Source: an uncultured virus (IMG/VR IMGVR_UViG_3300011240_000038) (lineage: Duplodnaviria; Heunggongvirae; Uroviricota; Caudoviricetes). Taken from it: a DNA stretch of 64,000 nt. The DNA is taken from IMG/VR virus record IMGVR_UViG_3300011240_000038. The stretch is one strand, 5' to 3'. Every line of letters starts with the position of its first letter. Position 1 is the stretch's first letter. Under the pieces are notes generated by a model. That model was not told the origin of the DNA. It did not search any database and saw only the letters and a program-made list of their open reading frames with translations. Below are positions 48,576-64,000 of the stretch, in pieces. Made by a program: the position numbers and the translations under genes.

Positions 48576-49349
48576 ATGAAAATAGGATTAAGATATGGAC
48601 ACTCTATTAATTGTAGAGGTGCTAGAGGAAAAATCGACGAAGTAGATAGTTGTAGGATTCTTTATGGCAAGATTAAAGCTTTACTAGAAGTACAAGGCCA
48701 TACAGTTATAGATTGTAATAGCAATGCTAACAATGTAAATTCAGAATTAAGTGAAGGTACTAATAAAGCAAATAATACGAAAGTAGATATATACATTACC
48801 ATACACATGAACTCATTTAATGGTAAAGCAAAAGGTGTTGAGTGTTGGGTATATGATACTAATAGTAAAACTGCAATAACTATAGGAAATAAAATATGTG
48901 CTAATATATCGAAACTAGGCACTCTAAATAGAGGGGTTAAATACAGTACAGGTTATCATGATTTAAATGCCAGTAGTATGGAATCTATAATAGTAGAAAG
49001 TTTATTCTGTGATAGTAGTCAAGATGCCGAATTATTTAAAAATAAAACTGATGAATTAGCAAGAGCTATTGCCAATGGAATTGATAATAGAGTGAGTTTA
49101 AATATATCTAAGCCACAAAAGCCAATTATTAAGGAGGAATATGATATGAAAAAGATAGTAACTTATTTAGGAGATGCAGATCTATTTGCTGCAGTAATGG
49201 TGGCTCAAAAATTATCTTGCCCATTAATGCGAGTTAATGATTTTAAAGCTAGTGGGTTAAAGGCAGAACAAGTAATTCAGATAGGTGGTAATGTGAATGA
49301 TACTAACAGATTTACAACAATGAAAAATGCAGCTAATAAGTATTTATAG
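48576..49349 (+). CDS. Endolysin, N-acetylmuramoyl-L-alanine amidase (Amidase_3)
   Basis: GHS..GA.G..DE, IHMNS, IVESLFCD. Confidence 0.92.
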   Translation: MKIGLRYGHSINCRGARGKIDEVDSCRILYGKIKALLEVQGHTVIDCNSNANNVNSELSEGTNKANNTKVDIYITIHMNSFNGKAKGVECWVYDTNSKTAITIGNKICANISKLGTLNRGVKYSTGYHDLNASSMESIIVESLFCDSSQDAELFKNKTDELARAIANGIDNRVSLNISKPQKPIIKEEYDMKKIVTYLGDADLFAAVMVAQKLSCPLMRVNDFKASGLKAEQVIQIGGNVNDTNRFTTMKNAANKYL

Positions 49350-49518: not shown

Positions 49519-51936
49519 ATGGATTTTGATAGAAATATTGAGCATTTAGTTAATGCTATTGAAAGAGCTAGAGAAGAAAATATAAAAGTAAATTTGCTGG
49601 TTGGTGCAGGATGCTCAGTTAGTGCGGGAATACCACTCGCTGATGAAATAGTAAATGACTTAGAAGAAAGATATGAGGATGAAATTAAATGCATTGAGAT
49701 AAAAAACTATGGAGATTGTATGAGTAAACTTACACCGGTAGAAAGACGTAGGTTAATAAATAGTTATGTAAGTAACGCTAAAATAAATTGGGCTCATATA
49801 GGAATTGCAAATTTAGTGAAAAAGGGATATATAGACAGGGTATTAACTACAAATTTTGATAATATTATTCCTAAAGCATGTTCTTTAGTAGGAGAGTACC
49901 CTGGAATTTATGATTTAGCAATGTGCAAAGAATTTAGGTCAGATTTAATAAGTGAAAAGGCCATATTATATTTACATGGACAACATACCGGTTTTGTATT
50001 GTGTAATACAAAATCCGAAATAAAAGCTCAAAAGAGGAGATTAAGACCAATATTAAAAAACTTCAAAGAAAAGAGCATGTGGATAATTATTGGATATAGT
50101 TGTCAGAATGATGCTGTATGGGAAATATTAAGAGAAGAGAAGAGCTTTGACAATAGATTGTATTTAGTAGGATATAATGAAAATGATCCAAATGAAAATA
50201 TGAAAAAAATATTAGGTGAAGATAAGTATTCGTTTTATATTAGAGGATATGATGCGGATAGTTTTTTTATAGCACTTATGAAAAAATTAGATGAATTTCC
50301 ACCTAAAATAATAGAGAAACCGTTTTCTTATTTAGAGGAAACATTAAATGAAATTACACCATATAGTGATAATGAGTCATATTTTAAAGATGATGTGCAT
50401 ATAATAACAAAAGATATATTAAATGATGCTATAAGAGAATTTGAAGAGGATAAAGTAAAAATGGCTAAGTTTTATTATCAAATAAATATGCATAATAAGT
50501 TTACAGAAAAAATAAAAGAAATTGAAAATGACAACTCAAATAAGGAACTAATCAAAAAATTAAGTAAGGCTATTAAGGAAGTGGATTCTCAATTTATTGA
50601 TAAAATAGAAAAGTTTTTAAATGATGGTTATTGTATAGATGATGATAATATATTAGAAAAGTTAGAAGAGGCAGATATAGTTATAAGTTTAAATGCAGAT
50701 AACAGCAAGTGCTATGAATTGAGAAAGAAAATAGACTCCATGTATGATTGCATTGATGAGAAAAGATTTGATTCAAATAATATAATAAATAGATGCGATT
50801 TATTGATATATTTATACGAATATAATAAAACAGAAAAGGTTTTTTTAGAGAAGGCAGAAAAAATTTGTATTAAAAATAATGAAATATTTAGAAACAAATA
50901 TGCTTATGAAGTGCAGTTATGTCAAATTTACATTAGTTTTATAGATTGGTTTACTATAAATAAAGAAACTGAAAAACAGAAAATTTATATAGATAAGGTA
51001 TTAGTTATACTAGATTCAATAGAGAAGTTAGCGTATGATAATGAAAACATGATTGTAAATTTAGCAACATTATATATAAAGCTTATCAATTATGTTAATG
51101 AAAAGGACAAGGAAAATTATTTTAATAAAATTAATCTTTTATTTGAAAGTGCATATAAAATTAATAACAATCCTAATACTATATCTGTATGGGGACGGAG
51201 ATTAAATGATATAAGATTTGATGAATCATCAGAATTGGAGAATAAGCGAATACTAATTTCATTTGAAAAGCTAAAAAGCTCAATAGAAACTCAAAATGAT
51301 AATACTGATTATAATTTTATTATTTGGGTTGAAGTAATTATGCAAATTATATCTTTCAAAAGTACAGATGATTATTTAAAGTATATAGATATGTTTTTAG
51401 ATACTACAATTTCGAATCTAAATAAAATTAAAGTTGTTAGTTGTGAAGATATATTTAATACAATTGCATATAGGTTAATTAAAATTAATGAATTTAGAAT
51501 GTCCAGAAAAATATTGGATGAGGGATTAAATATAAATGGATTAGATCCATATTTAATTGCGACATTAGGATATTGGTACTATACTAATAAGGATATAGAT
51601 GAATACGAAGCTGAAGAAAAGGGTAAGTATAATTATGAAAAAGCTATAGACTTAGTAGAAGATGATAATGTAAGAGAAGCTTTTAGACTAAAATATAGGT
51701 TTGAGTATGGAAAGTTTATGATAACTAGAGAAAAAGATGTAGAAGAAGGTAAAAAAATTGTAATGGATATATTTAATGAAAAAGAGACTGAATTGAATAA
51801 GCAAGTGCTTTGGGAAGTTGAGTCTTTTATAATAGATAAAGGTTATATAAAAGAAATAGAGGAATGTAATAATATACATATAAAAGAAATAGTGGATAAT
51901 ACAAGAGAAGAATTAGTTGCTAGTGAAAAAATATAA
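49519..51936 (+). CDS. SIR2-domain protein with a long helical/TPR-like C-terminus (putative NADase defence effector)
   Basis: LLVGAGCSVSAGIP, TTNFD, YLHG, IGYS motifs; helical-repeat-like C-terminus. Confidence 0.85.
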   Translation: MDFDRNIEHLVNAIERAREENIKVNLLVGAGCSVSAGIPLADEIVNDLEERYEDEIKCIEIKNYGDCMSKLTPVERRRLINSYVSNAKINWAHIGIANLVKKGYIDRVLTTNFDNIIPKACSLVGEYPGIYDLAMCKEFRSDLISEKAILYLHGQHTGFVLCNTKSEIKAQKRRLRPILKNFKEKSMWIIIGYSCQNDAVWEILREEKSFDNRLYLVGYNENDPNENMKKILGEDKYSFYIRGYDADSFFIALMKKLDEFPPKIIEKPFSYLEETLNEITPYSDNESYFKDDVHIITKDILNDAIREFEEDKVKMAKFYYQINMHNKFTEKIKEIENDNSNKELIKKLSKAIKEVDSQFIDKIEKFLNDGYCIDDDNILEKLEEADIVISLNADNSKCYELRKKIDSMYDCIDEKRFDSNNIINRCDLLIYLYEYNKTEKVFLEKAEKICIKNNEIFRNKYAYEVQLCQIYISFIDWFTINKETEKQKIYIDKVLVILDSIEKLAYDNENMIVNLATLYIKLINYVNEKDKENYFNKINLLFESAYKINNNPNTISVWGRRLNDIRFDESSELENKRILISFEKLKSSIETQNDNTDYNFIIWVEVIMQIISFKSTDDYLKYIDMFLDTTISNLNKIKVVSCEDIFNTIAYRLIKINEFRMSRKILDEGLNINGLDPYLIATLGYWYYTNKDIDEYEAEEKGKYNYEKAIDLVEDDNVREAFRLKYRFEYGKFMITREKDVEEGKKIVMDIFNEKETELNKQVLWEVESFIIDKGYIKEIEECNNIHIKEIVDNTREELVASEKI

Positions 51937-52360: not shown

Positions 52361-52438
52361 ATGATATCAGAAAGAACTCTTTATGTGCTAGCGATAGCAT
52401 TGGCCCTTATGGCGCTTGCTATAGTTAAATTGGTATAA
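52361..52438 (+). CDS. 25-aa hydrophobic peptide (type I toxin-like)
   Basis: MISERTLYVLAIALALMALAIVKLV; AGGAGG RBS and own promoter. Confidence 0.6.
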   Translation: MISERTLYVLAIALALMALAIVKLV

Positions 52439-53065
52439 ACACTATAGTAAAACTTCAATGGCAAGCATTAAAAAAGAGATTTTCAATTTATATTCATTAT
52501 GTGGTGGAAAGATAATCCATGCTCCACCCATAAAGGATATAAGATATCATAACAAATAAGCTACAGAATCAATAGTAAATATATTAAATGATATCTGTAG
52601 TTGACCTCCTTTAAATACAGAGAAAGTAGTTGATTTCTTACAATTAAGAGTCTCAACTACTTTCTTTTTATTTACACTATGATTAATTAAATAACTTATA
52701 AGGATATATAATGATTGATATTTCAAGGGATTTAAGGAGTATTAGAATCAGTGTAAAATATATTAAAGATAGTATCTGTAGTTATATCTTTTGTTTAATA
52801 TCATCAAAAGCCGTGATAATTCTAAAATTATAATCATGATATTAGACAAAATATCAAGTATTCAGAATTTAAATAGATTTAATTAATAGAAAGTAAAAAT
52901 ATTAAAACTTAAATAAGCAAAGATGAGAATGAAGATCTTCATTGGTCTTATTTTGAACATATTTTGTTGAAAACTTTTAAATTACTAGGCAAAGTAATTT
53001 TAAAAATACTATTGAATACGTATTATACGTATGATATAATATAAATATAGGGAGGGGGTAAGATA

Positions 53066-53251
53066 TTGAATGCGAAACAGTTATTAAAAATAGCTAAAGA
53101 AAATGGTTGGCAAATCAAAAGTCAACAAGGGTCACACATTAAACTAATACATAAGGAATTAAATAAAACACTAATAATTCCTTATCATGGTACAAAAGAT
53201 ATACCAATAGGTACATTAAATGAAATTCTCAAGAGGTTAGGGCTTAAATAG
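53066..53251 (+). CDS. hicA: HicA toxin
   Basis: GW.IKSQQGSH, IPYHG.KDIPIGTL. Confidence 0.92.
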   Translation: MNAKQLLKIAKENGWQIKSQQGSHIKLIHKELNKTLIIPYHGTKDIPIGTLNEILKRLGLK

Positions 53252-53326
53252 CCCTAGCTAATGAGATTAATATATAGATTGTAATTTTAATAAATAAATA
53301 TATTAAATGTAAGGAGGAGATGGATC

Positions 53327-53728
53327 ATGTATAATGAAACTTTTATATATCCGGCGATAATTAAAAAAATAGGAGATAAGGACTATAATATAAGATTTAA
53401 AGACTTTGAGAATATAATAACTTATGGTGAAAGTATAGATGAAGCTTATGATATGGCTGAGGATGCATTAAAACTAGAGATATTTGATTTATATAGTGAT
53501 AAGTTAGAAATACCTATTGCTACAGATATAACAGATATAGAAGTTAAAAGTGATGAAACTTTAATATTAGTCAAAGTGAATCTGAAAAATATATTAAAAC
53601 AATATGATAATAAAGCAATAAAGAAGACATTGACCATACCATCATGGCTTAATAAGTTAGCAGAGGAGAAGAAAGTAAACTTCTCGCAAGTACTCCAGGA
53701 TGCATTGAAAAAGATACTAGATATTTAA
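53327..53728 (+). CDS. hicB: HicB antitoxin
   Basis: YPAI, TYGES..EA..MAEDAL, KKTLTIPSWLN, NFSQVLQ; TACGTA-TTA-TACGTA operator at ~53017-53031. Confidence 0.93.
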   Translation: MYNETFIYPAIIKKIGDKDYNIRFKDFENIITYGESIDEAYDMAEDALKLEIFDLYSDKLEIPIATDITDIEVKSDETLILVKVNLKNILKQYDNKAIKKTLTIPSWLNKLAEEKKVNFSQVLQDALKKILDI

Positions 53729-53745
53729 CCAAATAAAATATCAAA

Positions 53746-53872
53746 TTAAAAGGTAGAAAGCAATTGCAATATTACTTTCTACCTTATTTTTCTTTTGTAT
53801 AAGCACATAGTTGAGAGTGAACTCAAATAAATTATAGACACTTAGCATTAATTATATACATTAAATGTAAAA
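53746..53872 (+). repeat. ~125-bp imperfect direct repeat, copy 1 (includes a terminator)
   Basis: Matches 55128-55248. Confidence 0.8.
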
Positions 53873-54023
53873 TAATCAACAATTAGTTATATAAAATCAA
53901 TGATAATATTGGAAAGTTAGGTTCAAAAATAATCCTTTCATGTATATATAAGGAAAAATAAGTGCATTTATGTGATAATATAGTAGAACGTAATTTTAAA
54001 AATATAAAAAGGGGGATTAATCA

Positions 54024-54422
54024 ATGATTAATTTTAAGAAAAAATCCAAAAAAATAACTGCAATAACATTATTAACTTTAATTGCATTAGGAAGTTTTAC
54101 TACAGCATTTGGTTACAGTAGTAACTTTTCTGCATCATATCAGGTATATAATAATGGACGAGGATGTGTGGATGGTTCTAAAAATGGTATTTTTTACAAC
54201 CTAGCGAATAAAAGAACAACTTTATACGTTGATTCGAAATCAGGCTCTGGGACAGTAAATGCAGATCTTACAAGGGGGCTTGTTATACAGAAGTCTATTT
54301 CTTTTAGTGGTAGTCAATCTGCTTTCGCAATGGGAACAGTTCCAGCAGGGAAATATCATTTATTTATATCTGGAGGAACTCCAAATACTTATATAACTGT
54401 GAAAGGTAGAATTACTCAATAG
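54024..54422 (+). CDS. Secreted small beta-rich protein
   Basis: Basic N-terminus, hydrophobic core and TAFG/AFG cleavage-like site. Confidence 0.7.
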   Translation: MINFKKKSKKITAITLLTLIALGSFTTAFGYSSNFSASYQVYNNGRGCVDGSKNGIFYNLANKRTTLYVDSKSGSGTVNADLTRGLVIQKSISFSGSQSAFAMGTVPAGKYHLFISGGTPNTYITVKGRITQ

Positions 54423-54452
54423 AGTGTTCTAAATTGGGGAATATACTTTAAT

Positions 54453-55022
54453 ATGGAAATAGCAGGCATAATTATAGGTGGAAGATTACTCTTAATTTTC
54501 AGCATTATTATATTTATTATAATTAGAGCTATATTATTTATTAAAAACAAAAAATTTATATTAAAGAATGAAATATTATATATGATATTTTGTGTATATA
54601 TTATTTCTTTAATATCAGTTACACTTTTGCCGATACTTATATATTTTACACCACAAAATTACGCAGTTGAGACATCTATTAATTTAAATATATTCGATTT
54701 TATAAGCACATATAGTAATTCAAATAAATTATTGTTTTTCAAAAATACTATTGGAAATCTAATACTGTTAGTACCTTTAGGTATATTATTGCCATTATTA
54801 TGGAATAAAAAGTTCAAAAGTTTGAAAAAAGTAACTATAATAGGATTTTCAACATCTCTTATAATAGAAATACTGCAATATTTTGAAATATACTTTGGGG
54901 TAACAAGAGGGTATAGAGTATGTGATATTACAGATTTGATTTTTAATACTATTAGTATAATGTTAGGCTATATGATTTTTCAAATCTTATTTGATGATGA
55001 AAAGTTTATAATTTCAAAATAA
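54453..55022 (+). CDS. VanZ-family membrane protein
   Basis: GNLILLVPLG, SLIIEILQ, R.CDITDLIFNT. Confidence 0.88.
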   Translation: MEIAGIIIGGRLLLIFSIIIFIIIRAILFIKNKKFILKNEILYMIFCVYIISLISVTLLPILIYFTPQNYAVETSINLNIFDFISTYSNSNKLLFFKNTIGNLILLVPLGILLPLLWNKKFKSLKKVTIIGFSTSLIIEILQYFEIYFGVTRGYRVCDITDLIFNTISIMLGYMIFQILFDDEKFIISK

Positions 55023-55127
55023 AACTAGTAATTAAAAGTGTGATATATAATATAAAGGTAAGAACTTTAGATCCAAGACTTTACGTAGAATACACGGTGA
55101 AGTTTATTTATAATAATTAATTTAAAT

Positions 55128-55248
55128 TTAAAAGGTATAAAGCAATATAATATTACTTTATACCTTTTTTTCTTTTGTATAATCGCATGGTTTAAGATGT
55201 ATTTAAATTATAGACAGTTAATCCTCATTATATACATTAAATGTAAAA
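55128..55248 (+). repeat. ~125-bp imperfect direct repeat, copy 2
   Basis: Matches 53746-53872. Confidence 0.8.
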
Positions 55249-55309
55249 GTGTTAATCATAATAAAGTTCTTTTCTTATTTTGTAGAATCATTACTCAATT
55301 TCCTTAAGT

Positions 55310-55441
55310 TTATCTTCCTTTCAAAATGTGTAGAAGTTCTTCTTTGTTTGAATCTACTAACCTCAACAATGACTCTGTTACTAATCTAGATGTATCTGGT
55401 CCCATAGTGCCAGTTACATTTAACTTTCTTTTTTTCTTCAT
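55310..55441 (-). CDS. Small hypothetical protein (43 aa)
   Basis: GAGGTG RBS; MKKKRKLNVTGTMGPDTSRLVTESLLRLVDSNKEELLHILKGR. Confidence 0.55.
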   Translation of the reverse strand: MKKKRKLNVTGTMGPDTSRLVTESLLRLVDSNKEELLHILKGR

Positions 55442-55526
55442 TATAAATCACCTCATTTGAAAATATTGACAAAGTGTGAATATATTATACAATGTAAATA
55501 TAATAGAAAAGCATGGGGGTTATTTA

Positions 55527-55988
55527 ATGAAGAAAATATTTAGTTTATTATTATGTGCAATAATGATATTAGGTCTAGTTGGGTGTGGGGATAATGATAT
55601 GAGCTCAGAAAAAAAGCAATTAATAAAGCAATTTGAAGAGGGTGTTGAAGATTATAAAACCGCATTGGAATATTTTAAAAAAGATGATCATGAGAATAAA
55701 GGCAAATATTTAGATTTAGCTTTTGAAAAATTTAATGATATACTCAATATAACTAATGATGGTGATTTAACAGTACTTGATACTGGTTCAGAAAACTATA
55801 AATATTATTATGAACACTACTATTCAGGTAAACTTACAGAGATATATTCAAGCAATACAGATTTATATTTGGCTGATTACTATATGAGTTATGAACAACT
55901 TTTAGAAGAATGGAACAAAAATATAGATAATATGAATAATATTATTAAGGAATACAAAGAGACGAACAATAATGAAACTTCAAAATAG
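55527..55988 (+). CDS. Lipoprotein
   Basis: MKKIFSLLLCAIMILGLVG-C lipobox. Confidence 0.82.
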   Translation: MKKIFSLLLCAIMILGLVGCGDNDMSSEKKQLIKQFEEGVEDYKTALEYFKKDDHENKGKYLDLAFEKFNDILNITNDGDLTVLDTGSENYKYYYEHYYSGKLTEIYSSNTDLYLADYYMSYEQLLEEWNKNIDNMNNIIKEYKETNNNETSK

Positions 55989-56019
55989 TTGACTAGGGAA
56001 ACCTAGTCTTTTTTTATTT

Positions 56020-56048
56020 GAAGGAAATTTATGGGATATGTAGAATAG
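56020..56048 (+). promoter_or_regulatory. SigH-like promoter
   Basis: GAAGGAAAT-11-GTAGAATA matches RNAGGAWWW-N11/12-RNNGAAT. Confidence 0.6.
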
Positions 56049-56068
56049 TATATCGTAGAGGTGGTGTT

Positions 56069-56269
56069 ATGGAAGTTAAAAATAAACTTAAAGAGATACG
56101 TATGCGAGAGTATATGATGGATTCAGGAGAGTTTGCTAAATTTTTAGGAGTTCCAAGAAGTACATATTCACAATGGGAAACTGGAAATAATAATCCTACA
56201 TTAAATAAGGCTTTTGAAATTGCTGAAAAGTTAGAAAGAAAATTAGTGGATATATGGTATTCAGAGTAA
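56069..56269 (+). CDS. XRE HTH regulator
   Basis: NKLKEIR, FAKFLGV.RSTYSQWETG..NP. Confidence 0.88.
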   Translation: MEVKNKLKEIRMREYMMDSGEFAKFLGVPRSTYSQWETGNNNPTLNKAFEIAEKLERKLVDIWYSE

Positions 56270-56410
56270 TATCATATATCCTTATTTTTTATACATAAAA
56301 TTCTAAAAAAATAAAATAAATTCTAAAATATAGGAAACATTTTAAAAAAACAAGCATATAAATATATTAAGAAGTTAGAAAAATTTAGAAATATTTATAA
56401 GGAGATTGAT

Positions 56411-57277
56411 ATGATTCTAGGAATTGATGTAGGAAATTATAGTGTAAAAGTTAATCCAAACATTAACGTAAAAAGTTTAGTGAGTACAGAAGAAAACATT
56501 TTAGGATCAGGTATAGTTCTAGAATATGATAATAAAAAGTTTGTTATAGGTGAGGGGAGCTTTGAAACTGAACTAAATAAGAGTAGTAAGGAGAACTTTC
56601 TACCAATGTTATACACAGGCATTGCATTAGCAAGTGAAGATGTGTTTAATCAAGTTGTTTGTGGATTGCCAATTAACCAATACAAGGCGAATAAAGATGC
56701 ACTTGAGAGAATGGTTAATGAAAACAAGATGAAAACAGTAAAACTAAATGGTAAGTCTAGAGAAATAGTAATTTCTGAGTTTAAAGTTTATCCAGAAGGA
56801 ATAGGAGCTTATTACAGTTTATCTACTAATGAAGATGTAATTATAGTTGATATAGGTGGAAGAACTACTGATATAGCGTATATATGTGATAAAAAGCACC
56901 ACACGAGCTCTACTGTGGCAGTAGGAACACTTAATATATATAAATCTATATGTGATAGGTTAAACGGTGAGCATAGCTTAGATTTGGACTTACAAATGGT
57001 AGATAGAATTATTCAAAAGGCTTCACTTAAAGTGGATAATAAAGAAGTTGATTTAAGATTTATAACGGAAATTCTTAAAGAAAATTTTATGAAAATTAAA
57101 CAGGATTTAGATTTCAAGTTCCCAGCTAGAACTGAAAGAATAATATTAGTTGGTGGTGGAGCTAAGTTGTTTAGCAGGGCATTTGCTAAAAGATATTCTA
57201 ACTTTGAAATAGCAGATAATCCTTTATATGCTAATGCGATTGGATTTAAAAAGGTAGGTGAAAGTTTATGGCAATAA
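56411..57277 (+). CDS. parM: ParM/StbA-family actin-like protein
   Basis: GIDVGNYSVK, GLP, PEGIGA, VDIGGRTTD, VGGGA, ANAIG. Confidence 0.9.
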   Translation: MILGIDVGNYSVKVNPNINVKSLVSTEENILGSGIVLEYDNKKFVIGEGSFETELNKSSKENFLPMLYTGIALASEDVFNQVVCGLPINQYKANKDALERMVNENKMKTVKLNGKSREIVISEFKVYPEGIGAYYSLSTNEDVIIVDIGGRTTDIAYICDKKHHTSSTVAVGTLNIYKSICDRLNGEHSLDLDLQMVDRIIQKASLKVDNKEVDLRFITEILKENFMKIKQDLDFKFPARTERIILVGGGAKLFSRAFAKRYSNFEIADNPLYANAIGFKKVGESLWQ

Positions 57278-57471
57278 AACCAATAACCATAAGTTTTAAA
57301 AATAATGCAGAAGATAAAGAATTGAATTTATGGATAAATAGCCATAGCAATTACAGTGGATTCATAAAAGACTTATTAAGAAAGGCTATGCATGAGGAAA
57401 GAAAAGAAGGTGGAGAAGTTATAAAAAAGCAGGTTGGATCTAGCAATTTGATAGATTTAGGGGATTTTTAA
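57268..57471 (+). CDS. Small ribbon-helix-helix (ParR-like) protein
   Basis: ISFK..ED.EL..WI...SGFIKDLLR; overlaps the parM stop. Confidence 0.7.
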   Translation: MAIKPITISFKNNAEDKELNLWINSHSNYSGFIKDLLRKAMHEERKEGGEVIKKQVGSSNLIDLGDF

Positions 57472-57636
57472 ATAAAAAATAGCCTAAATCCAAATGGGTA
57501 GACTTAGGCTAGGAAGCTTAAGCATGCACTCCAGCGTCTACTCTACGCTTTCGCTTCATACTTCAGCGTATGCTATAAATTTTGAAATGATAACTATTTT
57601 AGCTCCAAATATTCAAAGTTTACAAAATGTTAAAAA

Positions 57637-57711
57637 TTAGAAAATAACTGCAGCACAAACAACCGCATAACAAATAAGGTAACCACATGTAATTGCAAAT
57701 GGAATAGTCAT
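57637..57711 (-). CDS. 24-aa hydrophobic peptide
   Basis: GGAGGTG RBS; MTIPFAITCGYLICYAVVCAAVIF; minus-strand terminator at ~57473-57510. Confidence 0.55.
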   Translation of the reverse strand: MTIPFAITCGYLICYAVVCAAVIF

Positions 57712-57788
57712 ATAAAACACCTCCGATAAAATTTATTAAGTATTAATATCATTAACAAGATTCAATTAATTATTCAGGAGGATCTATT

Positions 57789-58193
57789 ATGTTAAATAAA
57801 AAAAAGGTTTATTCGATTCAAGAATTTATTCAATACTTGGATGAAAAAAACATTAAAAAGACAGATAAACAAGTAGGGATATTATTGAAAGATAGAAAAT
57901 TTAAGCCTATATTAGTTGCAGTAACAGGAAATTTATTACACTATAGTGTAGCGTTAGCGGATGCATCTTCAGCTACGGGGAAAATTAGTGTTGCTGGTAA
58001 TACCATATTTGGTATATGTAAAGAAGCTGCATTCTGGATATGTTTGATTATGTGTGCTATAGAAATAGTAAAAGCATTGATGAATGGGGATACGAAGAGT
58101 GTTAGTAAAGTTATAGCAAAATATATAGTAGCATATGGAGCTATATATCTTTTACCATGGTCATTCAATCTTATAAAAGATATATTTGGTTAG
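57789..58193 (+). CDS. Membrane protein, pilin (TrbC/VirB2)-like topology
   Basis: VALA cleavage-like site followed by two hydrophobic helices. Confidence 0.55.
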   Translation: MLNKKKVYSIQEFIQYLDEKNIKKTDKQVGILLKDRKFKPILVAVTGNLLHYSVALADASSATGKISVAGNTIFGICKEAAFWICLIMCAIEIVKALMNGDTKSVSKVIAKYIVAYGAIYLLPWSFNLIKDIFG

Positions 58194-58205
58194 GAGGTAT
58201 GAACT

Positions 58206-58502
58206 ATGATTAGTTACACTATTTCTGAATTTTTAGCAGTAATTGAACCAGCGGATAAAATTTCTTATATGGATGCAATAAAAAATATAGGGACTTTTTT
58301 CAGTTATCTTTTACACCCAAGTAAAATATTATTATTGTTATGGAATTGGACATTTGAATTATCGTATTTTATATGTTTACTTATTGCTTTATATGGTTTT
58401 TTTATGGTGATGACAGGGGATAAAAGTAAAAGAAAATATTTAAGTGGTTCTCTAATAACTTATTTTTTTATTAATATTATTAACTATATAATTATGGGGT
58501 GA
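58206..58502 (+). CDS. Small membrane protein
   Basis: Two TM segments; AGGAGG RBS. Confidence 0.65.
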   Translation: MISYTISEFLAVIEPADKISYMDAIKNIGTFFSYLLHPSKILLLLWNWTFELSYFICLLIALYGFFMVMTGDKSKRKYLSGSLITYFFINIINYIIMG

Positions 58503-58506
58503 TTAC

Positions 58507-60837
58507 ATGAAATTTAAATCATTGAAACTAAGTGATTATTTTGAAATAAAAAAACCTACGTATATTTATTTGAAACTTACACCAGATAGTTCTATAAGAA
58601 ACTATAATAGCAGTGCTATAGCTAAATCTATATCTCTTATGTATAAAAGCATATTCCAACACATAAAAAATGAAAATAAAAAAATAATATTTGAGACTAA
58701 TTGTAAGGTTTCATATTTTATAAATATAACTAAAAAAGAAGTTACATTTTACTTCATAGTACCAAACTTTTATAAAGATTTAATTAAAGAAAAAATACGT
58801 AACACTTGGAAACGAATAACTATAGATGAAGTAGATGCTATCAAAGAATTTAAAGGTGATTCAATAAAATATCAACTATATTATAAAAAAGAGGATGCAT
58901 TATCTTTAGCTGTAGATAAAAAGAATAATGATCCATTAAATTCTTTATTAAATGTAATAGAAATAATTAAGGAAGATGAAAGAATAGGAATATTTTATAA
59001 TTTCATTCCAACATTTCAAGGTGATTGGAGAGGTAGTTATAAGAAAACTATATCTAAATTAGAGAGTGGTAAACCAGTTGAAAGAGATATCACTGGTTCA
59101 ATTATAATTAGGAATATAGTTAGTTTTATATCAGATATATTGAAGGAAGCATTAGGCGTTATATTAGGAAATGAAGCAAAAGAAAATTCTAATTTAAGTT
59201 TTCTAGAAGCTGCAATGGGTATAGTAAAGAACTTTAATTTATCTAATGCTACAGAGAAGAAAAAGAATGCATTAATATTAAAGGGTCAGATAATAGTAGA
59301 AAGCGAATCAAAAGATAGGGTTAGAGCAACTACAAATGCTATTACAGTATGCCAAAGTTTTAAGGCTATAGAAGAAGATAATGAGCTTAAATATAAAGAA
59401 ATTAAAAATAAAATGAAGAATGTATGGTATACTACAGACTTCAAGATTAAGGGTGTAGAAGAAAGTAAATTTTCCATAGATGAATGTAGTAATTTCATTC
59501 AGTTACCAGGTAGAGAACTACAAGATAGATTTGGAGGAATTAAAAAAATTAATACACTTGAAACTGAAGTACCAGATGAACTTCAACAAGGTACAAAATG
59601 TATAGGGCATAATACTTATAAGGGAAATGTGACAAAAACTTATTTAACTACAGATAAAGATTATAAGAATTTAGCATTAGTACCTATAGGGCCTACAAGA
59701 AGCGGTAAAACTACACTATTAGGAAATCTTGCAGCAGATAGTGTTAAATGTGGAGAATGTGTAATAGTTTTAGATTATATAGAGAATTGTGGATTGAGTG
59801 AAGATATTAAAGCTATGATACCCAAAGAGAATGTTTTTGAAGTTAATTTGTATGATACTAACAATTTACAAGGTCTTGGATATAATGAAGCTATAGTTGA
59901 TACAGATGATGTATTTAGACAATATGAGAGTGCTAAAAAACAAGCATCACAAGTGCTTGCACTTATTAATAGTATTAATATCAGTAATAGTGAATTTACT
60001 CCAAGAATGGAGCGATATTTAACAAGTGCTTGTCTAGTATCTTTTATACAAAAGAAGTCACTGAGAGATGTAATAAAATTATTGCAGGAATGGCAGTTTA
60101 GAGAAGATATAATAAATACCATATCTAAGAACCAAAATGATAACTTGGAAGAATATATAGGGTACCTTAAAGAGTTGGACGAATGGTCAAAGGCTACTAA
60201 AGATAATCCTTCTGAAAAAATAGGGACTAAAACAAGTTTGATAAGTGGAGTAGTGGATAGGTTTAATAAATTGAAATCTAATACTTATATGGAACTTATG
60301 CTTAAGAAAGATATTACGGATAATTTTAATCTTCTGGAAGAGATGGAGAAAAATCAAGTGATATTTATAAAAATGCCTGAAGTTATGTTTGGTACTGCAG
60401 AAGAAAGAGATATAATGACAACCTATTGGTTGACTAAAATTTGGATGGCAGCTCAAGCGAGAGCTTGGAAAATTACTGATAGATATAAAAGAAAAACAGT
60501 TACAGTAATTGGTGATGAAATAGCACAATTAAAATCAGCAGAAGAATATATTGGTAATAGATTAGATCAAACCGCAAAGTTTGGAATTAAATTTGTGTTA
60601 AGTACTATGTATATTAATCAATTAAGAATTAGAGAAAAACTTAAGACTGCTAATACTAGTTATATGTTTATATCCGGTAGTGATAAATCTAATTTTAAAG
60701 AATTGAAAGATGAATTTGAACATAGTGGATATACTTTAGAAGATATGTTAAATCTAAAAAGATATCATTCATTGAATTACATTAAGCATTCAGAAGGATA
60801 TTGGGCTGGCATTACAGAATTACCTAAACCTAATTAA
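58507..60837 (+). CDS. VirB4/TraG/HerA-FtsK superfamily P-loop ATPase
   Basis: Walker A GPTRSGKTT, IVLD, Walker B VIGDE..Q, KFG...STMY..QL. Confidence 0.7.
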   Translation: MKFKSLKLSDYFEIKKPTYIYLKLTPDSSIRNYNSSAIAKSISLMYKSIFQHIKNENKKIIFETNCKVSYFINITKKEVTFYFIVPNFYKDLIKEKIRNTWKRITIDEVDAIKEFKGDSIKYQLYYKKEDALSLAVDKKNNDPLNSLLNVIEIIKEDERIGIFYNFIPTFQGDWRGSYKKTISKLESGKPVERDITGSIIIRNIVSFISDILKEALGVILGNEAKENSNLSFLEAAMGIVKNFNLSNATEKKKNALILKGQIIVESESKDRVRATTNAITVCQSFKAIEEDNELKYKEIKNKMKNVWYTTDFKIKGVEESKFSIDECSNFIQLPGRELQDRFGGIKKINTLETEVPDELQQGTKCIGHNTYKGNVTKTYLTTDKDYKNLALVPIGPTRSGKTTLLGNLAADSVKCGECVIVLDYIENCGLSEDIKAMIPKENVFEVNLYDTNNLQGLGYNEAIVDTDDVFRQYESAKKQASQVLALINSINISNSEFTPRMERYLTSACLVSFIQKKSLRDVIKLLQEWQFREDIINTISKNQNDNLEEYIGYLKELDEWSKATKDNPSEKIGTKTSLISGVVDRFNKLKSNTYMELMLKKDITDNFNLLEEMEKNQVIFIKMPEVMFGTAEERDIMTTYWLTKIWMAAQARAWKITDRYKRKTVTVIGDEIAQLKSAEEYIGNRLDQTAKFGIKFVLSTMYINQLRIREKLKTANTSYMFISGSDKSNFKELKDEFEHSGYTLEDMLNLKRYHSLNYIKHSEGYWAGITELPKPN

Positions 60838-60844
60838 TATGCAA

Positions 60845-60885
60845 CAATATTAGGAGCCAAGTACATGCATGGCTTTACAATGTAA
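60845..60885. other. Probable right attachment site (attR)
   Basis: Host-like frame resumes at CAT GCA TGG (60864); upstream of this the frame hits a stop at 60831 and runs into the phage ATPase gene. Confidence 0.6.
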
Positions 60886-61889
60886 ATAGAATAGAGCCAG
60901 CGGTAAGAAGACACATTGAAAAAATGGGAATAAAAGTTAGATTTGTAAGCCGTGTAGTAGATGTAAATATGGAAGGGATTAATATAAAGGGAATTTATCT
61001 TAGTAATGGTGAATATATAGAAGCAGATGCCTTTGTAGAAACTACTGGTTCTACAGGACCTATGGGAAATTGCTTACGCTATGGAAATGGTTGTTCTATG
61101 TGTATTTTAAGATGCCCAGCCTTTGGACCAAGAGTAAGTATTAGTTATAGAGCAGGTATAGAAGATATAAAAGGTGAAAGACAGGAAGATGTATTTGGTG
61201 CTTTCAGTGGATCATGCAAGTTGGAGAAGGATAGCTTATCAGAGAAAATAGTAAAACAGTTAGATGAAACAGGAGTAGTAGTATTAAAGGTTCCACCAGA
61301 AGATATAAATACGGATAAGTTAAAGCAAAAGGTTTGTCAACAATATGCACTAAAGGAATTTGCGGAAAATATAGTACTTTTAGATACTGGTCATGCTAAG
61401 TTAATGACTTCTTATTATCCCTTAGATAAACTTAGAAAAATTGAAGGTCTTGAAGAGGCAAAATTTGTAGATCCATATGCAGGTGGTAAAGGAAACTCCA
61501 TTAGATATTTATCAGTTGCACCAAGAAGTAATCAGATGAAAGTTGTAGGACTTGATAATTTATTCTGTGCTGGAGAAAAAAGTGGGCTTTTTGTAGGACA
61601 TACAGAAGCTATAACAACTGGTTCATTAGCAGGACATAATGCTGTTAGAAATGAGCTTGGAATGCCACTTTTAACCCTTCCAAGAAATTTAGCTACTGGA
61701 GACATTATAGCTTATGCTAATGAAAAGGTTCAAACTACAGAAGGTAGAAGAAATAGATATACCTTTGCAGGAGCCGAGTACTTTAAGAGAATGAAGGATA
61801 ATGAACTTTATATTTTAGAGTCAGAAGAAATTCAAAAAAAGGTGAGGAAGTTGGAGTTAGATAATATTTTTAATCAAAAATTAGTATAG
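60864..61889 (+). pseudogene. 3' part of a host FAD-dependent oxidoreductase (GidA-like) interrupted by the prophage
   Basis: HAWLYNVNRIEPAVRRHIEKMG..., ETTGSTGP.GNC, FCAGEKSG; no RBS at the Met and no N-terminal GxGxxG FAD motif. Confidence 0.75.
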
Positions 61890-61986
61890 AATACATCAAA
61901 TTTAGAATATAAATCTATTTAACAGTAACCATCAAGATATATGATTTAGTATATCCTGATGGTTTTATTGATGAATTTTCAATAAT

Positions 61987-62445
61987 TTATTTATATAAAA
62001 ATTTATGTTTTAAAAATTTTATATCTATATTTTCGCAGTTAGCAATAGTGTTTATAGATAAACCTTCGTAATTAAGTATTATTGACTTATCAATCAACAG
62101 CTCAGCTGCAAATTGATCAGCTTGCATTTCATATTTACCTTTAACTTGAGTAGTTTTACTTTCTAAAAAAAGTATATTTAGATTACTATGCAATATAGCG
62201 TGGCCAAGTTCATGAGCACAAGTAAATAACATATCGATTTCACTTAATCTAATATTTAAGTGAATTATTTTATTTTTTGGAGCATATTGATAAAATCCAT
62301 GAATAGACCCTAAATCTTCGTACATAACATTTATTCCAAGAGCATCACATAATTCTCGAGGATCATTAGTTTTATATTTTTTTACTAAGTTATTTACTAA
62401 ATTTGAAATTTCCAAAATTATATTCCCCCCCAAAAACATCATCAA
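61987..62445 (-). CDS. ImmA/IrrE-family metallopeptidase
   Basis: FTCAHELGHAILH, E.QADQFAAELL. Confidence 0.92.
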   Translation of the reverse strand: MMMFLGGNIILEISNLVNNLVKKYKTNDPRELCDALGINVMYEDLGSIHGFYQYAPKNKIIHLNIRLSEIDMLFTCAHELGHAILHSNLNILFLESKTTQVKGKYEMQADQFAAELLIDKSIILNYEGLSINTIANCENIDIKFLKHKFLYK

Positions 62446-62468
62446 ATTTTACGAAATAAAGTTTGAAA

Positions 62469-62912
62469 TTATTTTTTATATTTTTTAGGGGTATATTTTA
62501 TCTTATTCATTTTCTTAGCATACTCAATTCCATTTTGAATAGCAGATTTTAATAATTCCCAGTCTTCATCATTAATAGGATTACCGGAAAGCATAAGTCC
62601 TTCTTGATTTTCTAAAGACTCCAAGGTACTGTTAAAAATTTTCTCAATATCTTTTTTATCTTTGGGATTTAATTCTAAATCATCAAAAGTTGATTTTTTA
62701 GGTGATGATATATCACTTCTACCAAGTAAGTAGTCTACAGATACGGAAAAAAAATCGGCAATTCTTTGAAGCAATTCATTTTCTGGTATTGCTTTATCAT
62801 TCTCATATTTAGAAATTGAGCTATTATCTATTAAAAGAATATCTGCTAATGATTTTTGTGTTAATCCATGTTTTTTTCGAAGTTCTTTTAACCTAATACC
62901 CAGTGTATTCAT
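62469..62912 (-). CDS. XRE repressor (ImmR-like)
   Basis: HTH, DYLLGR, KYTPKKYK C-terminus. Confidence 0.92.
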   Translation of the reverse strand: MNTLGIRLKELRKKHGLTQKSLADILLIDNSSISKYENDKAIPENELLQRIADFFSVSVDYLLGRSDISSPKKSTFDDLELNPKDKKDIEKIFNSTLESLENQEGLMLSGNPINDEDWELLKSAIQNGIEYAKKMNKIKYTPKKYKK

Positions 62913-62948
62913 ATATTTACACCTCCTATAATTATATTATAACCATAT

Positions 62949-63231
62949 TTGAAGTAAAATCAATATAAGTTGAAATAAAATCAAAAAAAATTCAATATGA
63001 CTTGACAATTTGAATTTAATTCAATAAAATCAAAATATGAATATTGAATTAAATTCAAATATGGGGGTTGTATAAGAAATGAAGTATATTTAGAGAAATA
63101 ACTCAATAATAGTAAATCACGTTATAATTAGAGTGCAGGCTGAAATATGTCTTTAACAAATGAAATATTATATTGAATTTAAATCAATATAATATTTCAA
63201 CAACAAATAATAAAAATTGAATTAAATTCAA
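62949..63231. promoter_or_regulatory. Six TTGAA-N5-WTCAA operators around divergent promoters
   Basis: Copies at ~62949, 62970, 63010, 63044, 63173 and 63217; TTGACA at 63002. Confidence 0.75.
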
Positions 63232-63242
63232 GGGGAATCGGT

Positions 63243-63677
63243 ATGAATATGAATAAAAAAATTGAAACTATGCTTTATAACTTTAATCAAACGAAAGCAG
63301 AAATTAAAAATATAAAACTAGATATAGAGTTATTAGAAAATGAATATGATGACGGAATTGGTGTAAATTACGTGGAGAAGACAGGAAAAACTAATAAAAT
63401 TACTTCAACAGTGGAAAACATGATAATAAGAAAAGAGGCTCAAATTAACAGATTAAATTATGCTATAAAAGTTAAAGAAGCTGAAATAAAAAAGATTGAA
63501 AATGCTCTAGAAATTCTTACAGATAGAGAAAGAAGTATTATTGAAATGAGATATTTTCAGAAGGAAAGTAATAGAAATATTTCAGCAAAGCTTTATATTA
63601 CAGAAGAATATGTATCAGCAATAAAGTCAAAAGCTATTAAATCTCTTGCAAATATATTCTTTATAAATTCTTTATAA
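63243..63677 (+). CDS. ArpU/RinA-like (sigma-70 region 4) activator
   Basis: TNKITSTVEN, IENAL..LTDRERSIIEMRYF, C-terminal HTH. Confidence 0.85.
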   Translation: MNMNKKIETMLYNFNQTKAEIKNIKLDIELLENEYDDGIGVNYVEKTGKTNKITSTVENMIIRKEAQINRLNYAIKVKEAEIKKIENALEILTDRERSIIEMRYFQKESNRNISAKLYITEEYVSAIKSKAIKSLANIFFINSL

Positions 63678-64000
63678 ATTCTTTATAAATTTCTTTTAAA
63701 CTCTCTTTATATAATCGGGTTAAAGCGGTGCTAGAATAATATCATCGCAGTGGTGATAAGTTATTAAAAGTTGAGTCTTAAGATAATAAATTAGTTTTAA
63801 ATTTTAAAATAAGAATAATAAAGTTTAGATTACTAATTTATCACTATGAGTTATGGTTAAAAAGTTTTATTAACAAATAAGAAATGGAGCTAAAGGAAAG
63901 GGGTGATAACAATGCGGTGACTTTCATATTAAGATTTATAAATTCTTTGAAATACATTAGGATAATTCAAAAAGAAAGAATAGCCTCTAATTTAAAGTAA

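Follow-up and report, generated by a model that had tools for sequence, protein, structure and literature searches.

A VirB4-like ATPase, pilin-like membrane proteins and an actin-type partition pair linked in phages of spore-forming bacteria

What use could a prophage have for a partition actin, two small membrane proteins and an ATPase resembling a secretion motor? The question is raised by a Clostridium prophage contained in a 64,000-nucleotide stretch of DNA (hereafter the window), of which they are the last genes. The right-end module spans positions 56018–60837 and encodes, all on the plus strand, an Xre-type HTH protein, ParM, a ribbon-helix-helix (RHH) protein, two membrane proteins and the ATPase; every gene named there in an earlier, sequence-only reading was recovered. 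The serine recombinase and this module enclose a full siphovirus gene set, and cargo genes stand near the module (a SIR2-domain protein, HicAB and VanZ). No published description of a phage module combining a VirB4-like ATPase, pilins and ParMR was found in a literature search. The features are as follows.

1–1596, minus strand: large serine recombinase (sequence searches)
55991–56008, plus strand: terminator-like hairpin with T run, end of the upstream lipoprotein gene (hairpin prediction)
56020–56046, plus strand: candidate sigma-H-type promoter, GAAGGAAAT ... TAGAAT (motif and conservation)
56070–56269, plus strand: Xre-family HTH regulator (Pfam HTH_3, 3.7e-11; open reading frame listed from TTG 56018)
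56248–56281, plus strand: T-run hairpin overlapping the 3' end of the HTH gene, resembling a terminator or attenuator (hairpin prediction)
56298–56400, no strand: possible centromere (parC-like) and promoter (exact AAATTCTAAAA present twice, 20 bp apart)
56411–57277, plus strand: ParM, actin-like partition ATPase (Pfam ALP_N, PHROGs)
57268–57471, plus strand: RHH-type ParR-like adaptor, 67 aa, overlapping the parM end (phrog_4223, 4.4e-8)
57480–57511, minus strand: terminator with 13-bp stem, for a leftward transcript (hairpin prediction)
57637–57711, minus strand: gene for a hydrophobic 24-aa peptide, with RBS GGAGGTG, between parR and mem1
57789–58193, plus strand: mem1, 134 aa (VirB2/TrbC-like lead)
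58206–58502, plus strand: mem2, 98 aa (C-terminal two-helix membrane hairpin)
58507–60837, plus strand: VirB4-family ATPase, 776 aa (predicted fold, motifs)
60838–60863, no strand: prophage-host junction, attR within or adjoining (resumption of oxidoreductase homology)
60864–61889, plus strand: split host FAD-dependent oxidoreductase, 3' 341 codons (homology)

The ATPase had been placed less than 30 bp from attR. Indeed, only 26 nt separate its stop (60837) from position 60864, where homology to the host oxidoreductase resumes at host residue 85. The downstream frame corresponds to the 3' portion of the gene for a conserved FAD-dependent oxidoreductase of 425 aa (best match in Clostridium subterminale, 97% identity), and by this homology the host gene is split by the prophage.

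The predicted hairpin and T run at 55991–56008 close the lipoprotein gene, so that the module begins a new transcription unit. No RNA run containing the stretch was found, and four runs aligned to it gave no reads. About 25 nt 5' of the RBS of the HTH gene lies the sigma-H-like candidate, AGGAAAT, 14 nt and GAAT (56022–56046), whose strict form occurs twice in the window, both strands counted. The −35 (AGGAwwT) and −10 (GAAT) were kept in 9 of 13 loci with differing spacer sequence, and this conservation backs the promoter proposed earlier at this place. Over all 48 genome loci, 11 had such a motif, against about 8.5 expected; its enrichment was confined to the Clostridium clade. The true start of the HTH gene is likely the ATG at 56070, judging from the RBS GAGGTGGTG in front of it, and its homologues stand first in the module in 12 related loci. 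A SigE/K-like −10 upstream of parM had also been proposed. The motif, CATATAAAT, is located at 56355. The window contains 62 occurrences of CATANNNTA, loci L027 and L032 have not kept the motif, and the proposal is not supported. The interval 56298–56400 contains an inverted TTAGAAA / TTTAGAAA besides two of the three copies of the exact 11-mer AAATTCTAAAA present in the window, and may be a parC-like centromere with iterons.

ParM was identified by ALP_N (70 bits, cut-off 26.3) and by phrog_691, 'partition protein' (5.7e-52), and the RHH family has the motif FSxYIKxLIxxDM. The layout of repeats, then a gene for an actin-like ATPase, then one for a small predicted DNA-binding adaptor is shared with ParMRC (plasmid R1) and AlpC/AlpA (prophage CGP3). 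In CGP3, the phage actin and its adaptor move phage DNA (PMC4446434, PMC5539076). Unlike these systems, the present pair is linked to an operon of VirB4 and pilin type, in an integrated prophage. Downstream of the pair, the 24-aa peptide gene faces a conserved, GC-richer element (AGCGTATGC) in convergent orientation, a layout also seen in L027 and L032. This insert is like a type I toxin-antitoxin system; Rfam gave no match. Since the convergent small gene and the terminator lie between parMR and the following genes, the two sets do not form one operon here.

By sequence, the ATPase had no match in the PDB and none to a VirB4 family of Pfam or NCBIfam, and its PHROGs match was to a family of 'unknown function' (phrog_5156, 6.8e-95). 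It consists of a soluble N-terminal domain (residues 1–350) and a RecA-like motor (350–776), with a Walker A motif, GPTRSGKT (395–402), and a Walker B motif (D670-E671) that were invariant in 40 homologues. The full-length model (pLDDT 85.8) had as its top Foldseek match the full-length R388 TrwK/VirB4 (8rtd_O, E 1.7e-12). When the N-terminal domain was folded separately (pLDDT 84.7) and compared with 48,161 chains, TrwK again came first (Z 14.2, rmsd 3.6, 241 aligned residues), the next match having a Z of 8.3. For the C-terminal domain the Z scores were 26.0 with DndH-C, 25.6 with VirB4 4ag5, 25.2 with TrwB and 23.8 with HerA; the modelled motor thus ties between VirB4, TrwB and the defence motors DndH/HerA. 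The predicted N-terminal domain is specific to VirB4 and does not resemble HerA. The ATPase is therefore, by predicted structure, a VirB4 in both domains, which bears out the earlier VirB4/FtsK-like call. It shares this two-domain architecture, both halves matching, with TrwK and with VirB4 of Thermoanaerobacter pseudethanolicus (4ag5). It differs from the VirB4s of type IV secretion systems (T4SS) in being encoded by a tailed phage, in lacking sequence-profile membership and in having no VirB6, VirB8, VirD4 or relaxase beside it.

The two small membrane proteins precede the ATPase gene as virB2 and virB3 precede virB4 in T4SS. Mem1 has a leader or transmembrane segment whose last residues are ALA; two hydrophobic helices follow, with a G-D-x3-K loop between them. 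Its nearest named clusters were TrbC, T4SS_pilin, Maff2 and DUF4134 (score 0.87–0.88), and its family reached TrbC with E values of 0.013–0.039 in 3 of 66 cases. The mem2 family includes M23-peptidase fusions (in 15 of the 48 genome loci and, by visual inspection, in about 24 of 65 unique sequences) and T4SS_pilin-positive proteins of TP-84-type phages; its HMM matched TP-84 gp47 and the pilin-like protein of locus L087. The latter, encoded 5' of the ATPase, passes Pfam T4SS_pilin (28.3 bits, cut-off 26.6). On pCLD-type plasmids of the Clostridium botulinum group, where an ATPase 25% identical over 98% of its length is found, the protein directly upstream passes Pfam TrbC (28.5 bits, cut-off 27.9); it did not match the mem2 HMM, and pCLD showed no match to AAA_10 VirB4. 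These plasmids are unlike the present module in being 148–275 kb long, not phages, and without adjacent ParM. The earlier description of the membrane proteins as pilin-like can thus be kept, with the qualification that the signals are weak, mem1 and mem2 of the window being below the Pfam pilin cut-offs.

Are these genes conserved together? Among 48 species-level genome loci with the ATPase, mem1 was present in 43, mem2 in 42, the RHH gene in 27 and ParM in 25. The trio of mem1, mem2 and ATPase was therefore kept in about 90% of loci, with conserved gene order and spacing. ParM matches were about 78-fold denser upstream of the ATPase (25 in the 3.6 kb 5' of it, versus one in the remaining 541 kb of flanking sequence), and 24 of the 25 were on the same strand. 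In the IMG/VR loci, the counts were 74 of 80 for mem1, 72 of 80 for mem2 and 18 of 80 for ParM. Many phages of spore-formers carry the gene set, and the linkage supposed from this single locus withstood the comparison.

We propose, giving it an even chance, that two coupled parts make up a conserved phage module here, a T4SS-derived envelope machine and an actin-like device positioning phage DNA. In the first part, the sigma-H-type promoter would drive the Xre regulator; a partition cassette of type II (ParM and the RHH adaptor, with possible iterons upstream) comes next. The second, an operon of the two pilin-like proteins and the VirB4-family ATPase, would be what remains of a T4SS after removal of channel, coupling protein and relaxase. 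Phage DNA would be bound by the RHH protein and pushed by ParM filaments to the membrane or a cell pole. At that site a VirB4 hexamer, tethered to the membrane through mem2, would act on mem1, much as VirB4 acts on VirB2/VirB3, and build an envelope structure, which in a third of relatives would include the M23 wall hydrolase. This structure would hold the DNA or hand it on. That the two parts work together is somewhat more likely than not; that the cargo is DNA is somewhat less so, falling just short of an even chance. As no VirB6-type channel was found, DNA would have to cross the membrane without an identified pore. In archaeal Ced/Ted DNA import, a VirB4-like ATPase and small VirB2-like membrane proteins, a very small set, move DNA without a relaxase. 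The phage module resembles it in this minimal composition; unlike Ced, which is cellular, has a polytopic channel protein and no actin linkage, it is actin-linked.

The alternative that survives best, although we consider it unlikely, is that two unrelated cassettes share the accessory genome end by chance. ParMR would then be an ordinary partition system of plasmid type, used when the phage is excised or in a plasmid state, or else a leftover of a phage-plasmid ancestor, and the trio would have a separate accessory role, for example superinfection exclusion, membrane defence or a surface structure. ParM and the trio are also found apart: about half of the loci have no ParM next to the trio, and among 14 ParM records of other Clostridium phages, phiCp-D alone was shared with the ATPase set. 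The closest ATPase relatives (60% identity) are on C. botulinum phage-plasmids of about 57 kb without adjacent ParM. Here, the convergent gene and terminator separate the two sets, the neighbours are cargo genes, and the motor domain matches DndH/HerA, to which a weak PADLOC mad8 match (6.9e-7) may be added. Against chance stand the enrichment of ParM directly upstream on the same strand, the RHH gene, which stays with the trio even in loci without ParM, the VirB4-specific N-terminal domain, and a linkage that extends to distant lytic Herelleviridae, amid replication and regulation genes.

The latter phages (SPO1 in its gene 27.9 region, CampHawk, Shanette-type) encode an ATPase homologue of 21–22% identity over about 95% of the length and, like the present module, have a T4SS_pilin-like gene and an ALP/ParM gene, 1 kb upstream of the ATPase. 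Their order is T4SS_pilin-like gene, ALP/ParM, a 141-aa gene, small genes, ATPase and Replic_Relax. They differ from this prophage in being lytic, in the size of the ATPase (about 907 aa), in the Replic_Relax gene after it and in the pilin-like gene before ParM. One could imagine a membrane anchor for phage replication factories: during lytic growth, actin and adaptor would bring replicating DNA to a membrane site marked by VirB4, and sporulation would not be involved. Strictly lytic phages of SPO1-like and TP-84 type do carry the module beside recombination and replication genes, and efficient phage DNA replication is reported to need AlpC/AlpA in CGP3 (PMC4446434). This explanation is improbable, however, as it accounts neither for the wall hydrolase fusions, nor for the restriction to spore-forming hosts, nor for the sigma-H-type promoter.

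A minimal conjugation-like device, delivering phage DNA to neighbouring cells without virions, appears very improbable. Gram-positive mating channels include VirB4, pilin-like proteins and an M23 hydrolase, Replic_Relax adjoins the ATPase in SPO1-like phages, and TrbC is paired with the ATPase on the large pCLD-type plasmids. In pCF10, likewise, a small membrane protein gene (PrgI, VirB3-like) lies directly 5' of a VirB4 of about 790 aa (PrgJ), and the set includes a peptidoglycan hydrolase, PrgK, which presumably carries a LytM/M23 domain. Unlike the pCF10 set, the phage module has 3–5 genes instead of more than 10 and is ParM-linked; hhalign of the ATPase family against PrgJ or PcfC alone was not significant. 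Moreover, Pfam searches of 46 further ORFs and PHROGs searches of 25 ORFs of the prophage detected no relaxase, coupling protein, VirB6 or VirB8, as expected from the earlier remarks that a relaxase is missing and that the module is too minimal for a T4SS. Of 36 ATPase-bearing plasmids, 35 were typed non-mobilizable by PLSDB, and a lytic phage would gain little from such transfer. A decaying plasmid or ICE backbone without present function, to which the incomplete T4SS gene set might point, is hardly credible given intact reading frames with invariant catalytic residues in more than 100 diverse loci, lytic phages included, and the conserved order and spacing of the trio.

What would the coupled envelope and partition module be for? 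The ATPase was found in 88 phage records, all with hosts in the spore-forming genera Bacillus, Geobacillus, Lysinibacillus, Brevibacillus, Clostridium and Terrisporobacter (two D6E records name no host). At the same threshold, RecT and TerL of this prophage also matched phages of genera that do not form spores, namely Streptococcus, Staphylococcus, Enterococcus and Listeria. SpoIVA was present in 11 of 11 ATPase-positive genomes, versus 272 of 401 in the overall sample (p~0.013, uncorrected for phylogeny). The purpose we think most likely, tentative as it is and with the chances against it, is spore capture: as the host passes into stationary phase or begins to sporulate, phage DNA that is not integrated would be kept in its line. 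A sporulation role fits with the restriction to spore-formers, with the conserved sigma-H-type motif and with the virospores formed by SPO1, whose ParM (gene 27.9) was suggested to influence entrapment (PMC12991052). The restriction could also reflect shared gene pools, not function, and a prophage that is integrated enters spores with the chromosome, needing no such device. The cargo had earlier been described as the excised phage circle; this is too narrow, since the module is present in strictly lytic phages too.

The genes at the right end of the prophage form a real, conserved phage module, in which a VirB4-family ATPase is combined with two pilin-like membrane proteins (frequently accompanied by a wall hydrolase) and, in roughly half of the cases, with an actin-like partition pair. 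The window consists of a single AT-rich siphovirus prophage, in which the recombinase is followed by repressors, RecT/YqaJ, a DnaD-like initiator, SSB, methylases, terminase, portal, capsid, tape measure and tail genes. Between the endolysin and the module lies a cargo stretch coding for a SIR2-domain protein, HicAB, VanZ and a lipoprotein, and the module supplies the final genes before the host junction.

1-1596, minus strand: large serine recombinase (phrog_95, 2.2e-116)
48576-49349: endolysin
56018/56070-56269: HTH gene
56411-57277: ParM
57268-57471: RHH protein, 67 aa
57789-58193: mem1
58206-58502: mem2
58507-60837: ATPase, 776 aa

A terminator-like hairpin (55991-56008) closes the gene preceding the module. 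At the other end, the ATPase is followed in frame by the 3' part of an FAD-dependent oxidoreductase of 425 aa that is conserved in Clostridium. More than 7,000 homologues were found, the best of them 97% identical, and of the 120 listed nearly all have a length of 425 aa. The host-gene alignment begins at residue 85, window position 60864, which is 26 nt past the ATPase stop. The phage therefore sits inside the host gene, and the sequence-only reading was correct in placing the end of the ATPase less than 30 bp from attR. In an IMG/VR contig (L012) sharing 98% identity over 55448-64000, junction included, other cargo replaces 52371-55447.

By predicted fold, the ATPase belongs to the VirB4 family. 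Foldseek with a full-length model built from 40 homologues (pLDDT 85.8) placed full-length R388 TrwK/VirB4 at the top (E 1.7e-12), ahead of TrwB and HerA. For the motor domain (residues 347-776, VIA-align), DndH-C (Z 26.0), VirB4 4ag5 (25.6), TrwB (25.2) and HerA (23.8) were tied, so that the motor alone is not decisive for the family. Residues 1-355 were folded alone (pLDDT 84.7, pTM 0.80), and 48,161 PDB representative chains were searched without Foldseek. TrwK 7o42_A ranked first (Z 14.2, rmsd 3.6 Å, 241 aligned residues), the runner-up reaching Z 8.3, and model residues 14-350 lay on chain residues 34-433, the VirB4 N-domain. Foldseek with the same domain returned two matches with E of 0.001 or less, both of them TrwK chains. 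The VirB4 half of the initial "VirB4/FtsK-like" label is thus borne out by the N-domain fold. The Walker A motif GPTRSGKT (G395-T402) and the Walker B residues D670 and E671 are invariant among the 40 homologues.

Sequence profiles were far less telling. The curated VirB4 profiles (CagE_TrbE_VirB, AAA_10, NCBIfam VirB4 models) did not match the ATPase, for which Pfam gave AAA_14 only (E 0.0021) and NCBIfam nothing; AAA_10 was likewise without a match in the pCLD-type plasmids of the Clostridium botulinum group. In PHROGs the protein falls in phrog_5156, "unknown function" (6.8e-95). Searches of the PDB by sequence alone, with the protein and its profile as queries, found nothing, and hhalign comparisons of the ATPase family with PrgJ and with PcfC, each as one sequence, stayed below 1% probability. 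PADLOC, run on the module proteins, reported mad8 over the ATPase motor domain (6.9e-7, 27 bits) and generic HTH matches, and nothing further. The only T4SS family detected by Pfam among the 40 homologues was TrwB_AAD_bind, weakly, in 25 of them (best E 2.5e-6).

A type IV coupling protein (VirD4/TrwB) was considered and rejected; these last, weak matches cover the motor. Coupling proteins have an N-terminal transmembrane anchor and no VirB4-type N-domain, whereas the ATPase is predicted to have a soluble alpha/beta N-domain of VirB4 type; the lack of any membrane helix in the protein itself also disfavours this identity.

The pilin-like character of the two membrane proteins is upheld in part. 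In alignments and hydropathy plots, both show a leader peptide and then two hydrophobic helices with a short charged loop, as in TrbC/VirB2 or T4SS_pilin, but mem1 and mem2 of the window do not reach the Pfam cut-offs of PF04956 or PF18895. Homologues of mem1 vary at the N-terminus, after which come a signal-like helix whose last residues are small and two hydrophobic helices linked by G-D-xxx-K; the family matches Pfam TrbC faintly (E 0.013-0.039, 3 of 66). Its nearest named language-model clusters are TrbC, T4SS_pilin, Maff2 and DUF4134 (0.87-0.88), a proximity to TrbC and T4SS_pilin that we take as a lead only. Homologues of mem2 have in common a C-terminal hairpin "SYxxALxGG...GxKKG...". 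The mem2 profile also matches gp47 of the lytic phage TP-84 and its relative at locus L087, and these two proteins match Pfam T4SS_pilin (28.3 bits, above the cut-off in L087) and TrbC. On pCLD-type plasmids, a TrbC/VirB2 protein (28.5 bits, above the cut-off) directly precedes a 25%-identical ATPase. BLASTP gave no alignment between mem1 and the pCLD TrbC, and mem1 and mem2 showed no significant similarity in hhalign.

Fusions of the mem2 hairpin to an M23 peptidase number about 24 among 65 unique sequences (counted by eye) and 15 among 48 genome loci (counted by regular expression); dealing with the cell wall is therefore part of what the module does. At loci L060-L063 the fusion is inverted, three membrane helices coming first and the M23 peptidase being C-terminal, an order which, judged from sequence, would place the peptidase outside the membrane. 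In the TP-84 genome paper, TP84_47 is a "putative membrane protein" that mass spectrometry picked up in virion preparations, whereas TP84_48 is "unknown" (PMC5889276). Pilin-like gp47 adjoins the ATPase (L003), and its reported presence in purified virions is not what one would expect of a membrane protein from an early-region operon (PMC5889276).

The actin-like partition pair proposed at the outset was recovered. ParM has an actin fold (ALP_N 70 bits, for a cut-off of 26.3; MreB-like_C 45.2; ParM_N 33.6; phrog_691, 5.7e-52), and the small adaptor ORF of 67 aa follows directly, overlapping the end of parM. No Pfam family matched this protein; an RHH-like pattern is common to 34 unique homologues, part of which may be drift, since the profile was still gaining members at the final iteration. 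The motif FSxYIKxLIxxDM is common to the RHH sequences printed. A putative parC-like stretch 5' of parM (56298..56400) has possible iterons consisting of two exact 11-mers 20 bp apart and inverted half-sites.

Co-conservation was examined with HMMs built iteratively from the window proteins and applied to the relative loci. Among 80 IMG/VR loci, mem1 was present in 74, mem2 in 72, and ParM, within 3.6 kb upstream, in 18; each of the six loci without mem1 has less than 330 bp of upstream sequence. An independent scan with one genome per species gave 63 loci, of which 48 combined a complete ATPase with 3.5 kb or more of upstream sequence. In these 48, mem1 was found 43 times, mem2 42 times, RHH 27 times and ParM 25 times, so the trio of mem1, mem2 and ATPase is mostly kept, as co-conservation would have it. 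A rival explanation holds that the partition pair and the trio are unrelated cassettes, and ParM and the trio are indeed found apart in some elements. Against it, the 25 ParM matches within the 3.6 kb upstream (24 on the same strand) compare with a single one in the remaining 541 kb of flanks, a density about 78-fold higher, and the RHH gene keeps its place before mem1 even in loci without ParM. In the lytic Herelleviridae examined (CampHawk; L089, a 132,562-bp contig with a 95% identical ATPase; and the Shanette-type L090), the order is a T4SS_pilin-like gene, ALP/ParM, a 130-141-aa gene, small genes, a 907-911-aa ATPase and Replic_Relax, the last being found in SPO1-like relatives only.

The hosts of these elements have a trait in common. 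By tblastn, the ATPase was found in 88 phage records (Bacillus 76, Geobacillus 5, Deep-sea thermophilic phage 2, Lysinibacillus 2, Clostridium 1, Terrisporobacter 1, Brevibacillus 1) and on 36 plasmids (Clostridium 32, Bacillus 3, Alicyclobacillus 1), and the genome loci belong to Clostridium, Paenibacillus, Bacillus, Neobacillus, Sporosarcina, Desulfitobacterium, Desulfosporosinus, Lacrimispora and similar genera. The host genera bearing the ATPase are endospore formers. At the same threshold, the control proteins of the prophage, RecT and TerL, were found in 617 and 1,106 phage records respectively, including phages of Streptococcus, Staphylococcus, Enterococcus and Listeria. Within the class to which one Neobacillus locus belongs, 401 genomes were sampled and 11 had the ATPase profile; SpoIVA was present in 11 of 11, versus 272 of 401 (hypergeometric p ~0.013, uncorrected for genome relatedness).

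Upstream of the HTH gene, at 56022-56046, lies an AGGAAAT-N14-GAAT motif, whose strict form occurs twice in the window; -35 AGGAwwT and -10 GAAT at this spacing are the sigma-H promoter consensus. Both elements are kept, with a diverged spacer, in 9 of the 13 loci having an HTH homologue, which sustains the early proposal of a sigma-H-like promoter at this place. The motif background is 0.049 per kb per strand, and across the wider genome set there was no enrichment (11 of 48 loci, versus about 8.5 expected). Additional near-perfect sigma-H-like copies lie upstream in relatives belonging to the C. botulinum, sporogenes and tetani group. In seven C. botulinum-group relatives (L006, L009, L010, L014-L016, L018), several near-identical AGGAATTTTTTAACATaTgTAGAAT copies lie 2-4 kb 5' of the ATPase, and from their sequence this looks like a gene set under one sigma-H-type promoter. 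The second strict motif of the window (60793-60822) lies inside the 3' end of the ATPase and faces into the 3' fragment of the host gene that the prophage splits. The SigE/K-like -10 once proposed upstream of parM did not hold: CATATAAAT (56355) is neither rare, there being 62 CATANNNTA in the window, nor conserved, being lost in L027 and L032, and is uninformative. Spo0A boxes (TGTCGAA) numbered 0 in the window, versus 1.6 expected.

Between parR and mem1, a gene for a 24-aa hydrophobic peptide (57637-57711, minus strand, RBS GGAGGTG) is accompanied by a conserved element of higher GC content, in which AGCGTATGC occurs, and by a strong minus-strand terminator (57511-57480). L027 and L032 have this arrangement before mem1 as well. 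Since this minus-strand ORF with its own terminator separates them, parMR and the trio are separate transcription units in this phage. Four RNA runs carrying the same species label yielded 0 reads over 55400-61900, a result with no bearing on whether the module is expressed. The segment 57476-57740 may be a type I toxin-antitoxin-like unit. Rfam found no family over 55400-61000, and folds of the spacer gave z of only -1.4 and -1.7.

What the module does is a matter of graded likelihood. Its two halves probably cooperate on phage DNA at the membrane. That their purpose is the retention of phage DNA in sporulating hosts is a possible but less likely reading. Against it, the prophage is integrated, ParM is missing from many relatives, and no pore protein was found in the prophage. 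More speculative still is a dedicated "spore-entry" machine carried by phages of endospore-forming Firmicutes. In such a machine, the actin-like filament and the RHH adaptor would carry the phage genome to the pole, and a T4SS-derived complex of VirB4, pilin and wall hydrolase would fix it at the sporulation septum or move it across, so that lytic and plasmid-state phages might survive within spores. If true, it would be a T4SS relative acting within one cell, from mother cell to forespore. Besides the unrelated cassettes, the rivals are a replication anchor, a relic and cell-to-cell transfer. An anchor for replication would likewise involve phage DNA at the membrane. A relic has to be set beside the invariant Walker residues and the retention of mem1 and mem2. 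Cell-to-cell transfer is unlikely: 35 of the 36 plasmids are typed as non-mobilizable, and the 46 + 25 further prophage ORFs searched hold no relaxase family, as the sequence-only reading had it, nor any VirB6/VirB8-type channel part or coupling protein. The module is not a conjugation system.

VirB4 is the hallmark protein of both conjugation and type IV secretion. Conservation of VirB4 together with pilins on tailed phages, some of them lytic, without channel, coupling protein or relaxase and linked to an actin-like DNA mover, would be a new branch of use for the VirB4 superfamily. The module is also a concrete candidate for the old question of phage-genome trapping in spores, and because its genes occur in SPO1 and relatives infecting B. 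subtilis, that question is directly testable in a laboratory strain. SPO1 virospores have been reported, and entrapment may, on that account, be helped by a ParM gene (27.9); the available part of that work does not mention the ATPase or pilin genes (PMC12991052). Replic_Relax, ParM and ParG genes were noted in phage Izhevsk (PMC7685451), and prophage DNA is moved by AlpC/AlpA (PMC4446434, PMC5539076). By word search, "bacteriophage", "prophage" and "phage-encoded" are absent from a 2025 review of T4SS diversity (PMC12857230). No published description of the module was found in the papers searched; publications dealing with plasmids of C. perfringens and with phage genomes of Geobacillus and Bacillus leave the trio untreated, and the SPO1 transcription paper has nothing on the module genes.

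Other genes of the window deserve mention. The HicA/HicB toxin-antitoxin pair (53066-53728) and the VanZ-like membrane protein (54453-55022) are cargo, on DNA that is swapped in the near-identical L012. An 805-aa protein with a SIR2-type domain (49519-51936), 3' of the lysis genes, matches PADLOC Aga_SIR2-PNTD (6.8e-24) and PDC-S65 (3.1e-19) and is a candidate prophage-borne defence gene. Mid early region, a 660-aa KAP-family NTPase (17417-19399) matches the PADLOC candidate system PDC-S49 (1.9e-55). Directly past the host gene fragment, 61987-64000 carries an ImmA-type metalloprotease, an HTH repressor (minus strand) and a sigma-like regulator (plus strand), a second phage-like control region which probably belongs to a second element adjoining the fragment.
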